Shown in pieces: positions 16,795 to 61,350 of a stretch of DNA of 64,000 nucleotides. The stretch's first letter is position 1; each line of letters begins with the position of its first letter. The translations under genes were made by a program, and so were the position numbers. The DNA lies in the NCBI RefSeq assembly GCF_045037415.1, contig NZ_CP173438.1. The stretch is one strand, 5' to 3'. The notes beneath the pieces were generated by a model. That model saw nothing but the letters and a program-made list of their open reading frames with translations, was not told the DNA's origin and did no database searches. The stretch is from Escherichia coli. GTDB taxonomy: Bacteria; Pseudomonadota; Gammaproteobacteria; Enterobacterales; Enterobacteriaceae.

Positions 16795-17979
16795 ATGAAA
16801 AAAGTTATTTTATCTTTGGCTCTGGGCACGTTTGGTTTGGGGATGGCCGAATTTGGCATTATGGGCGTGCTCACGGAGCTGGCGCATAACGTAGGAATTT
16901 CGATTCCTGCCGCCGGGCATATGATCTCGTATTATGCGCTGGGGGTGGTGGTCGGTGCGCCAATCATCGCGCTTTTTTCCAGTCGCTACTCACTCAAACA
17001 TATCTTGTTGTTTCTGGTGGCGTTGTGCGTCATTGGCAACGCCATGTTCACGCTCTCTTCGTCTTACCTGATGCTCGCCATTGGTCGGCTGGTTTCCGGC
17101 TTCCCGCATGGTGCATTTTTTGGCGTCGGCGCGATCGTGTTATCAAAAATTATCAAACCCGGCAAAGTCACCGCCGCCGTGGCAGGGATGGTTTCCGGGA
17201 TGACAGTCGCCAATTTGCTGGGCATTCCACTGGGAACGTATTTAAGTCAGGAATTTAGCTGGCGTTACACCTTTTTGTTGATCGCTATTTTTAATATTGC
17301 GGTGATGGCATCGGTCTATTTTTGGGTGCCGGATATTCGCGACGAGGCGAAAGGAAAACTACGCGAACAATTTCACTTTTTACGCAGCCCTGCCCCGTGG
17401 TTAATTTTCGCTGCTACGATGTTTGGCAACGCAGGTGTGTTTGCCTGGTTCAGCTACGTAAAGCCATACATGATGTTTATTTCCGGTTTTTCGGAAACGG
17501 CGATGACCTTTATTATGATGTTAGTTGGGCTAGGGATGGTGCTGGGGAATATGCTAAGTGGCAGGATTTCAGGACGTTATTCACCACTGCGCATTGCAGC
17601 AGTGACTGACTTTATCATTGTACTGGCACTGCTGATGCTCTTTTTCTTCGGCGGTATGAAAACAACGTCGCTTATTTTTGCTTTTATTTGTTGCGCGGGA
17701 TTATTTGCCCTTTCAGCACCTCTACAAATATTATTACTGCAAAATGCCAAAGGCGGAGAGTTATTAGGTGCCGCAGGTGGGCAAATAGCGTTTAACCTCG
17801 GTAGCGCCGTCGGCGCATATTGCGGTGGTATGATGCTGACGCTGGGGCTGGCATATAATTACGTGGCGCTGCCCGCCGCCCTGCTTTCGTTTGCTGCGAT
17901 GTCGTCGTTGCTGCTGTATGGTCGCTATAAGCGCCAGCAAGCGGCGGATAGTCCGGTGCTGGCGAAACCACTGGGGTAG
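16795..17979 (+). CDS. araJ: MFS transporter AraJ, 394 aa
   Basis: ORF 16711..17979; internal Met gives MKKVILSLALGTFGLGMAEFGIMGVLTELAHNVGISIPAAGHMISYYALG...; start chosen at 16795. Confidence 0.9.
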   Translation: MKKVILSLALGTFGLGMAEFGIMGVLTELAHNVGISIPAAGHMISYYALGVVVGAPIIALFSSRYSLKHILLFLVALCVIGNAMFTLSSSYLMLAIGRLVSGFPHGAFFGVGAIVLSKIIKPGKVTAAVAGMVSGMTVANLLGIPLGTYLSQEFSWRYTFLLIAIFNIAVMASVYFWVPDIRDEAKGKLREQFHFLRSPAPWLIFAATMFGNAGVFAWFSYVKPYMMFISGFSETAMTFIMMLVGLGMVLGNMLSGRISGRYSPLRIAAVTDFIIVLALLMLFFFGGMKTTSLIFAFICCAGLFALSAPLQILLLQNAKGGELLGAAGGQIAFNLGSAVGAYCGGMMLTLGLAYNYVALPAALLSFAAMSSLLLYGRYKRQQAADSPVLAKPLG

Positions 17980-18005
17980 ATTGCAGTCACGGTGCACGTT
18001 GCTTA

Positions 18006-18094
18006 TTGCCGGATGCGGCGTGAACGCCTTATCCGGCCTACGGGACTGTTCATTTTGTAGGCCTGATAAGACACGCCAGTGTCGCATCAGGCAT
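18006..18094. repeat. BIME/REP composite element, copy 1 (araJ-mak intergenic)
   Basis: TTGCCGGATGCGGCGTGAACGCCTTATCCGGCCTAC...GTAGGCCTGATAAGACACGCCAGTGTCGCATCAGGCAT: paired, oppositely oriented REP palindromes of the GCCGGATGCGGCG type. Confidence 0.8.
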
Positions 18095-18134
18095 CGGAGC
18101 ACCGGGGGGTTGCCGCCACTGTGCGCGTTATTTG

Positions 18135-18224
18135 TTGCCGGATGCGGCGCGAGCGCCTTATCCGGCCTACCGGACGGCTCACTTTGTAGGCCTGATAAGA
18201 CGCGGCAAGCGTCGCATCAGGCAT
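18135..18224. repeat. BIME/REP composite element, copy 2 (tandem duplicate of copy 1)
   Basis: A near-identical ~90-bp unit 129 bp downstream of copy 1 (TTGCCGGATGCGGCGCGAGCGCCTTATCCGGCCTAC...GTCGCATCAGGCAT). Confidence 0.8.
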
Positions 18225-18247
18225 GATACGCCAATTGCCTGGGTTTT

Positions 18248-19156
18248 TTACTCTTGTGGCCATAACCATGCAGCGCCGCGTACGCCGCTCGAATCACCAT
18301 GTTTCGCCTTGTGTACCGGCGTTTCACATTCTCCGCCGAAGACAAATTGTTTAATCAACTGCGGAACCGTTTGATATAAACGGTCTACATTGCTCATTCC
18401 GCCGCCCAGGACAATCACATCCGGATCGAGAATATTCACGACATGTGCCAGCGATTTTGCCAGCCGCAGCTCGTAGCGACGCAATGCCAGTTCCGCTACC
18501 GGATCGCTTTCTTCAACCAGGCGGATAATTTCACTGCCTTTCAGCGCATGTCCGCTCAAACGACGATAATCCGTCGCGAATCCCGTGCCTGAAATAAAGG
18601 TTTCAATACAACCTTGTTTACCGCAATAACAAGGGACTTCCTCGCGATAACGCAGTTCGTCTTCGTCCATCCACGGTAGCGGATTGTGTCCCCACTCGCC
18701 TGCCGTGCCATTGCCGCCGATATGCGCCCGCCCATTGAATGCCACGCCCGCGCCGCATCCCGTGCCGATAATCACGGCAAAAACCGTCTGCGCTCCCGCT
18801 GCCGCGCCATCTACCGCTTCTGAAACCGCCAGACAGTTGGCGTCATTTGCCAGCCGCACTTCCCGCTGCAACCGCGCGCTTAAGTCTTTATCGAATGGCT
18901 GACCGTTGAGCCAGGTTGAATTGGCATTCTTCACCACGCCGGTGTAGGGCGAAATCGAACCTGGAATGCCCATACCTACCGTTCCGCGCTGCCCTGTTGC
19001 CTGCTCCGCCATATCAACCAACGTGGCGATCGTTTCAATAGTCTGCCGGTAATCATCACGCGGCGTGGGCAGACGATGGCGGTACAACTGCTCCCCTGCA
19101 TCGCCCAATGCAATCACTTCAGTTTTGGTGCCGCCTAAATCGATACCTATACGCAC
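18248..19156 (-). CDS. mak: Fructokinase / manno(fructo)kinase (ROK family), 302 aa
   Basis: ORF 18248..19294; reading from the GTG at 19156 gives [36 protein letters not shown]..., the Mak sequence. Confidence 0.92.
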
Positions 19157-42821: not shown

Positions 42822-43051
42822 GATTGTCTGCTCCCCCGTCTTGTTATGGGAGCAGTATTTCGTTGCGGGTAAGTTTGATAAAGGAATTAAAACGTCTTGT
42901 TAATAACAAAGCGTTTTTAGAAAAAAATCGGCAATGGTTAGCGAGTTTGCGCATTTTGCTACTTTTAACAAACATCGCCTGATGTGACGCTCACGCCTCT
43001 TATCATGCCTACAAATACTGGGGCCGGATAAATTTTATTCTCCAGTGTTAT

Positions 43052-45486: not shown

Positions 45487-45577
45487 ATGCCGGATGCGGC
45501 GTAAACCTTATCCGGCCCACATTTCGCTCGTAAACCGTAGGCCTGATAAGACGCGAAAAGCGTCGCATCAGGCATCT
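45487..45577. repeat. REP/BIME palindromic element cluster (frmB-yaiL intergenic)
   Basis: ATGCCGGATGCGGCGTAAACCTTATCCGGCC...GTAGGCCTGATAAGACGCGAAAAGCGTCGCATCAGGCAT: two oppositely oriented REP units. Confidence 0.75.
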
Positions 45578-47527: not shown

Positions 47528-47578
47528 GCCTACGGGCGAAATGTAGGCCGGATAAGGCGTTCACGCCGCATCCGGCAG
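47528..47578. repeat. REP palindromic element (mhpT-mhpE intergenic)
   Basis: GCCTACGGGCGAAATGTAGGCCGGATAAGGCGTTCACGCCGCATCCGGCAG. Confidence 0.75.
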
Positions 47579-61269: not shown

Positions 61270-61350
61270 GCCTGATGCGCTCCGCTTATCAGGCCTACAA
61301 TTTCAGTGATCTACGTAGGCCGGATAAGGTGTTCACGCCGCATCCGGCAT
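61270..61350. repeat. REP/BIME palindromic element cluster filling the lacA-codA gap
   Basis: GCCTGATGCGCTCCGCTTATCAGGCCTAC...GTAGGCCGGATAAGGTGTTCACGCCGCATCCGGCAT: two oppositely oriented REP units between the convergent lacA and codA stops. Confidence 0.75.

Follow-up and report, generated by a model that had tools for sequence, protein, structure and literature searches.

An apparently flank-derived insert in a probable BIME-2-class palindrome cluster between the convergent genes araJ and mak of Escherichia coli

What occupies the space between the convergent genes araJ and mak of Escherichia coli, and how did it come to hold two similar palindromic units side by side? Within the window, by which we mean the whole stretch of 64,000 nucleotides analysed, the araJ/mak intergenic spacer spans 17980–18247 (268 bp) and holds four REP hairpins arranged in two units. 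The names and limits of the two genes were taken from the RefSeq annotation of genome OV24, which is 100% identical over 801 bp, and the list of open reading frames agrees with them; this annotation also confirms the placement, made in an earlier note on this DNA, of the repeats between araJ on the plus strand and convergent mak on the minus strand. The araJ stop codon TAG lies at 17977–17979 (plus strand) and the mak stop codon TAA is the reverse complement of 18248–18250. Along the araJ–mak stretch no REP features are annotated in the K-12 RefSeq record. As a separate observation, in strain AVS0193 an IS1 element splits the araJ 3' region (record L009, 377–1074; near window position 17760) and the rest of the query is 100% identical to the window.

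We propose that the spacer very probably holds a BIME-2-class cluster in which two Y-linker-Z2 units occupy the shared 3' region of the convergent araJ and mak genes. The features of the locus are as follows.

16795..17979, plus strand: araJ CDS (MFS transporter), from the OV24 RefSeq annotation and the ORF end; its 3' UTR enters the REP cluster.
17981..18006, plus strand: flank copy 1, TTGCAGTCACGGTGCACGTTGCTTAT, the 26 nt from the araJ stop to the first Y REP, bearing an S-like CGGTGCAC motif.
18007..18041, plus strand: first Y-type REP, TGCCGGATGCGGCGTGAACGCCTTATCCGGCCTAC, a match to the Y pattern.
18042..18056, 15 nt: first tail-to-tail linker, GGGACTGTTCATTTT; similar 13–16-nt linkers occur at other BIME-2 loci.
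18057..18093, minus strand: first Z2-type REP (minus strand TGCCTGATGCGACACTGGCGTGTCTTATCAGGCCTAC), a match to the Z2 pattern.
18094..18135, 42 nt: atypical head-to-head linker, consisting of S-left, C, GGGGGG and flank copy 2.
18136..18170, plus strand: second Y-type REP, TGCCGGATGCGGCGCGAGCGCCTTATCCGGCCTAC, a match to the Y pattern.
18171..18185, 15 nt: second tail-to-tail linker, CGGACGGCTCACTTT, identical to the first at 11/15 positions.
18186..18223, minus strand: second Z2-type REP (minus strand TGCCTGATGCGACGCTTGCCGCGTCTTATCAGGCCTAC), a match to the Z2 pattern, whose loop received IS1397 in two other genomes.
18224..18247, 24 nt: right flank, TGATACGCCAATTGCCTGGGTTTT, kept across Escherichia in the alignments, with a T-run adjoining the mak stop.
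18248..19156, minus strand: mak CDS (fructokinase), convergent with araJ, from the OV24 RefSeq annotation; its 3' UTR enters the REP cluster.

The assignment to the REP family follows from several properties of the hairpins. Each of the four matches either the Y pattern (GCCGGATGCGGCG...CCGGCCTAC) or the Z2 pattern (GCCTGATGCGACGC...GCGTCTTATCAGGCCTAC), and each is an imperfect palindrome of 35–38 nt with GTAG/CTAC at its foot and Y- or Z2-specific stems, and 100 shuffles contained 0 matches to the REP consensus pattern. All four are extragenic, lying between the araJ and mak stops, and they belong to a dispersed family, with the 801-bp query matching a median of at least 39 places per genome and at least five further REPs found elsewhere in the window. 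These other elements are a tail-to-tail Z1(+)/Y(−) pair joined by 16 nt (61270–61348), a lone Y on the minus strand (47543–47576), a lone Z2 on the minus strand (45537–45573) and a degenerate Z-like element on the plus strand (42977–43012). As RNA, the first Y hairpin folds at −21.3 kcal/mol on the plus strand and −20.9 on the minus strand, and the second Y hairpin has the same values (−21.3/−20.9 kcal/mol); the first and second Z2 hairpins give −20.4/−19.9 and −21.8/−21.3 kcal/mol, respectively. The z-scores of the REP hairpins run from −3.2 to −6.1, and the intergenic region as a whole is much more structured than its shuffles (z = −5.0 on the plus strand and −4.2 on the minus strand). Among the collected REP variants the stems are nearly invariant save for one compensatory pair: the inner stem of the first Z2 is GACAC/GTGTC, compared with GACGC/GCGTC in the second and in most Z2 copies (window 18071–18080 versus 18200–18210), a compensatory change between A:T and G:C. 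The half-step GACGC/GTGTC (G:T, or G:U in RNA) is seen in strain L028, and E. whittamii has GACAC/GTGTC.

Two classes of composite element bear on this cluster. BIME-1 is a solitary element made of a Y and a Z1 REP joined by a long L linker, often with an IHF site in it, while BIME-2 consists of tandem copies of Y and Z2 with short linkers (PMC3333891; PMC1187871). The order here is Y(+) Z2(−) Y(+) Z2(−), that is, alternating inverted REPs with the composition of BIME-2 (2–12 copies). The tail-to-tail motif also agrees with BIME-2, since like linkers of 13–16 nt are found at tldD-yhdP, where the linker is GGTTATGTTCCGTTT, and at thiQ-yabI and iscR-trmJ, the match being one of shared sequence and not of placement within s, l or r. 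A 45-nt query made of Y tail, linker and Z2 tail finds full-length matches at a median of 4 places per genome. The short S linker of BIME-2 is the one property that the window lacks and the K-12 allele has, as the 42 nt found here represent S-left plus a 29-nt insert, and the allele would rank as 'atypical' under the published scheme in its head-to-head linker only. Judged by its REPs and linkers, the cluster is of the BIME-2, gyrase-associated class and not BIME-1.

We infer function from published work on the BIME family. At the RNA level, the hairpins would end the araJ and mak mRNAs and guard their 3' ends against 3'–5' exonucleases. Strong GC-rich hairpins on both strands between convergent genes, together with a conserved run of six to seven T residues at 18243–18249, could instead let the cluster act as an intrinsic (Rho-independent) terminator in both directions, serving araJ and mak, which we regard as unlikely, given that the terminator scan of 17700–18500 finds 0 sites on either strand where 1.3 are expected in shuffles, and that no hairpin stands directly before a U-tract, the T-run lying ~20 nt past the second Z2 on the plus strand. 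As there is no canonical intrinsic terminator on either strand, the hairpins of the proposed BIME-2 cluster are likely to serve as 3'-end determinants and exonuclease barriers for both mRNAs. The stems begin 28 nt past the araJ stop and 25 nt past the mak stop, and they are therefore beyond the 15-nt range that is tied to REP-dependent translational control.

At the DNA level, Y REPs would act as preferred sites of gyrase binding and cleavage, and such sites could absorb or insulate the positive supercoils that arise from convergent transcription. Gyrase is documented to act on BIME-2 elements, preferring Y REPs, and tldD-yhdP is heavily cleaved in gyrase Topo-seq (PMC6379681); BIME-2 elements have also been implicated as barriers to supercoil diffusion, or topological insulators. 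The araJ–mak cluster is likely to be a gyrase site, and a role as a supercoil barrier would suit a position between convergent genes. In the supplements of the Sutormin 2019 gyrase Topo-seq study that were examined, neither araJ nor mak is named.

How the second unit arose is a separate question, for which the extent of the repeat is informative. The direct repeat search aligns 17981–18078 with 18110–18207 at 85% identity and an offset of 129, and the repeat resumes at 18075–18094 versus 18205–18224 with an offset of 130, the shift being due to a 1-nt indel in Z2. In full, 17981–18094 and 18110–18224 are 85% identical over 115 aligned columns. The earlier note had placed two composite REP units at 18006/7–18094 and 18135/6–18224, 129 nt apart from start to start, and these hold. 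It had called them near-identical; the repeat is real, but identity was overstated, at 80/90 (88.9%) over the 90-bp units 18006–18094 and 18135–18224. Its description of a tandem duplication of an ~90-bp unit likewise stands insofar as the units are locally related, but a clean 90-bp tandem is not what is present, as the period is 129–130 bp and the flank was copied too. The REP hairpins are 92–94% identical between the units (Y 33/35, Z2 35/38), and the non-REP parts are 73% identical (tail-to-tail linker 11/15, flank 19/26). Tandem Repeats Finder gave no output at the araJ–mak cluster because two copies at 85% identity fall under its score threshold.

The two units might be independent insertions of dispersed BIME units, with their likeness due to membership of the REP family and not to local duplication. 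REPs are a dispersed family, and hence the similarity of the hairpins (92–94%) by itself is no proof of local copying; the tail-to-tail linker type is also common to many loci, so that the clean part of the repeat would fit either origin. It is the flank that decides. The repeat reaches 26 nt further left, into sequence with no further copy in the genome, and the 26 nt to the left of each Y REP (17981–18006 and 18110–18135) match in register at 19/26 positions. Only 4 of the ~128,000 26-mers of the window, the true copy included, reach 19/26 (binomial P ~4e-7 to 9e-5). The second flank copy occurs nowhere else in the genome, and the two copies co-vary in strain L028, where GCGCGTTGCTT is common to both. 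Independent insertion is thus improbable and, as judged from the in-register match, the head-to-head linker of the second unit contains a further, diverged version of the 26 nt next to araJ. The araJ-side 27 nt (17980–18006) are 76–93% identical among E. coli, compared with 97–99% for the flanking genes. Some variants of the first flank (GCGC, and TTGT in LF82) equal the second copy and suggest that the copies have undergone gene conversion.

The 42-nt linker can be divided into S-left (TCGGAGCAC, 18094–18102), C plus GGGGGG (18103–18109) and flank copy 2 (TTGCCGCCACTGTGCGCGTTATTTGT, 18110–18135). The earlier note had put the G-run at 18114..18119, inside a duplicated spacer. It actually lies at 18104–18109, 10 positions to the left, and falls in the 15 nt (18095–18109) that form a non-repeated junction, the duplicated part of the spacer being 18110–18135. 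At the other loci read, head-to-head linkers are 5–13 nt long. Those of djlA-rluA, yafJ-lpcA and rayT-yafL have 12–13 nt in the form TCGG[T/C/A]GCACAAT, and TCGGAGCAC matches these S linkers; the ettA-nadS linker differs from the TCGG form and that of tldD-yhdP is 5 nt. At araJ–mak in K-12, a 13-nt TCGGAGCACTTAT stands in place of the 42-nt linker.

Two simpler schemes were tried and set aside. A clean 130-bp tandem duplication from inside araJ (17965–18094/18095–18224) would read CGGAGCAC as a relic of the araJ end ...CGAAACCAC, a reading that was dropped as the TCGGNGCAC motif within it is the generic S linker of djlA-rluA, yafJ-lpcA and rayT-yafL. Simple tandem duplication is also a misfit, in that CGGAGCAC after the first Z2 is not homologous to GATACGCC after the second. 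It may be that only the stretch from CAC-(T/C)GGGG onward was copied from the araJ end. In strain BH100N the junction reads GCAC-TGGGGGG-TTGCC, which is nearer to the araJ end (CCAC-TGGGG-TAGA-TTGCA) than is the window junction, and the likeness of the junction to the last araJ codons is too short for significance alone.

We suggest that a cluster of two units joined by the canonical short S linker, the state seen in K-12 and E. whittamii, gained a templated insertion of ~29–31 nt that copied the araJ stop codon and flank. The likely route would be template switching or unequal gene conversion, with one junction falling at a microhomology (CAC) and the second within the Y hairpins, which are almost identical. 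Change in the opposite sense could also apply, the K-12 form having lost 29 nt from the long form; outgroups show both the one-unit state (E1V33, SCPM-O-B-8794 and MOD1-EC7003) and a two-unit remnant (E. whittamii). One-unit alleles would have arisen by recombination between units, or would represent an older state. As proposed by Ton-Hoang et al. (2012), flanking sequence can be sequestered by RayT-type cleavage, and the insert might be the footprint of such flank capture in the course of BIME amplification, RayT having cut at a distant C-T in the last codons of araJ, although we hold this to be doubtful. To name RayT (TnpA-REP) cleavage as the cause, and not ordinary replication slippage or gene conversion, is a conjecture to which we give little credence, and the CT dinucleotide at the boundary of the insert is too common to serve as evidence for RayT. 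If it were true, flank capture, which has rarely been traced, could be followed here at a small, datable locus where the alleles preceding and following the event both segregate within a single species.

The structure of the central unit raises another possibility, namely that on the mak strand the Y-linker-Z2 unit is the gene for an naRNA4-type nucleoid-associated RNA that bridges cruciform DNA with HU. naRNA4 is known as a Y/Z2 two-hairpin RNA, with an HU-dependent role demonstrated for REP325 only (PMC4550694). In the K-12 allele, the central Y-S-Z2 unit (record L001, 1635–1714, mak strand) scores 79.8 bits against the naRNA4 gathering score of 59.5, and the window gives matches below this threshold, the best being 40.5, 38.3 and 37.3 bits. 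The low score of the window unit (38–40 bits) is explained by the 29-nt insert, which splits it. Moreover, the model in effect matches any Y-S-Z2 pair and hence says little on function, which suggests that the Rfam naRNA4 model captures generic BIME-2 units and not one specific RNA gene. With a function demonstrated for REP325 only, we consider an naRNA4-type gene at araJ–mak to be quite improbable.

The earlier note had also invoked IHF binding, which belongs to the L linker of BIME-1 (PMC3333891). A BIME-1 or RIP-type element whose main role is to bind IHF would have in common with this cluster its Y REPs and its inverted-pair layout. The partners here are Z2 and not Z1, however, the tail-to-tail linkers, at 15 nt, are unlike the long conserved L motif, and the IHF consensus WATCAANNNNTTR has no match in the cluster even with up to 2 mismatches, making this reading very improbable. 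The subtype should hence be read as gyrase-associated BIME-2 in place of IHF-binding BIME-1. That the true locus has one unit and the second is an assembly artefact of a collapsed or expanded repeat, which along with a single copy on resequencing had been named as grounds for refutation, is hardly conceivable, for although short GC-rich palindromic repeats are prone to misassembly, many independent complete genomes contain the 801-bp stretch in identical form, the diagnostic long junction is found exactly once in each of 1037 genomes at an identity of at least 93%, and the two copies differ at ~15% of positions, which makes duplication at the level of reads impossible.

The BIME-2 cluster at araJ–mak takes several forms within the species. 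Of 5426 complete E. coli genomes, 1037 (19%) have the 45-nt junction of the window allele (18093–18137), once each and at 93–100% identity, and in the same 5426 genomes the 29-nt insert was seen at one place per genome and at no other locus. The K-12 junction is found in 1377 records at an identity of at least 99% (25%). Alleles were further sampled as evenly spaced records out of 5470 matching, as follows.

Window-type allele, long linker: 12 sample records, 268 bp intergenic.
K-12-type allele, short linker: 15 sample records, 244–246 bp.
One-unit allele: 32 sample records, one of them disrupted by IS1397, 127–142 bp.

The sample and the junction searches give matching proportions. In approximate terms, 55% of the 5426 complete genomes have the one-unit, 25% the short two-unit and 19% the long two-unit allele, these being frequencies among sequenced complete genomes, a biased sample. 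The claim that BIME copy number varies between strains is thus borne out at this very locus. The long form is present in LF82 and ATCC 25922, the short form in K-12 and B derivatives, and O157:H7 has one unit. The mosaic linkers of the alleles point to recombination, among alleles as well as among units.

Relatives of E. coli add further states. Outside typical E. coli, one unit is present in Escherichia sp. E1V33, in MOD1-EC7003 and in SCPM-O-B-8794, the last of which is labelled E. coli, yet its flanking genes are only ~90% identical. The two-unit remnant of E. whittamii is joined by the short linker TCTGAGCACAA and has the same diagnostic variants as the window in the first Z2 and second Y REPs. 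In E. albertii (record L015), where araJ is missing between sbcC and mak, there is one degenerate Y-like REP, and in Citrobacter braakii and C. portucalensis (records L019 and L021) araJ and mak are present with no REP at the site. C. koseri (record L022) has its own four-unit array beside mak, of a different REP type and with an 82-nt period, and the site appears to have been colonised independently in this species. Two observations stand apart from the allele series. Just upstream of the mak stop in MOD1-EC7003 (record L025), the Z2 head has grown into a (CATCAGG)x6 heptanucleotide microsatellite, GCATCAGGCATCAGGCATCAGG..., and in the ettA-nadR region of O157:H7 strain MB9-1 (record L013, 257–424) an annotated RefSeq CDS ('NadS family protein') overlaps a REP pair of the Z2-linker-Y form.

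The element would also serve as a substrate of the RayT (TnpA-REP) nuclease, and it is a target of IS1397, an IS3-family element that is BIME-specific and inserts in the REP loop (PMC1525189; PMC3333891). Two genomes have IS1397 in the mak-proximal Z2 loop at the araJ–mak locus, namely those of strain 98200 (record L008, 2880–3860) and BH100N (record L030, ~395–545), at the equivalent of window positions 18203–18208, which corroborates the assignment of the cluster as a BIME. The two insertions differ in loop position, in orientation and in host allele (one-unit and long two-unit), and, given their differing position and orientation, they were independent events.

The biology of the cluster is already known, in that it is an ordinary, common allele of a known type of E. 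coli palindrome cluster, and the presence of a flank-derived insert in an allele this widespread is the only point of mild novelty. The locus is nevertheless a possible small natural experiment. Three high-frequency alleles lie between the same convergent genes, and they would allow REP number and spacing to be tested against mRNA 3'-end stability, gyrase cleavage and supercoil insulation. The copied flank itself offers a modest handle on how BIME arrays grow.

Compared with known systems, the araJ–mak cluster shares with BIME-1, RIP and RIB elements an inverted REP pair with a Y REP, and differs from BIME-1 in being without Z1, a long L linker or an IHF consensus. With naRNA4/REP325 (Rfam RF02564) it shares the two-hairpin Y plus Z2 unit, but REP325 has six units. 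Its REPs resemble the substrates of RayT (TnpA-REP), as each has the RayT-recognised GTAG/CTAC beside the hairpin foot and the Z2 REPs carry the TGCC-TGAT type I site; unlike in a REPtron, rayT is absent from the window, and these REPs are putative RayT substrates. The K-12 MG1655 allele (411,053–411,296, 244 bp) matches the window in its four REPs with their order and orientation, in S-left TCGGAGCAC and in the right flank. It differs in its canonical 13-nt head-to-head linker, in its 16–18-nt tail-to-tail linkers of another sequence variant and in the greater resemblance of its two units to each other, and between K-12 and the window the intergenic region is far more diverged than the flanking genes (97–98% identical). 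Close relatives in kind are BIME-2 clusters such as those of tldD-yhdP and sucB-sucC, which are likewise intergenic, with alternating inverted Y and Z2 REPs and a number of units that is polymorphic between strains, as is also stated for BIME-2 loci in PMC1187871, citing Bachellier 1997. The 15-nt tail-to-tail linker at tldD-yhdP is of the same GG..TGTTC..TTT type, whereas the head-to-head linker is 42 nt at araJ–mak but 5 nt at tldD-yhdP and 12–13 nt in the common TCGGNGCACAAT form. The extra 29 nt at araJ–mak are locus-specific, a copy from the araJ side, which is why the period is 129–130 nt and not ~96–103 nt.
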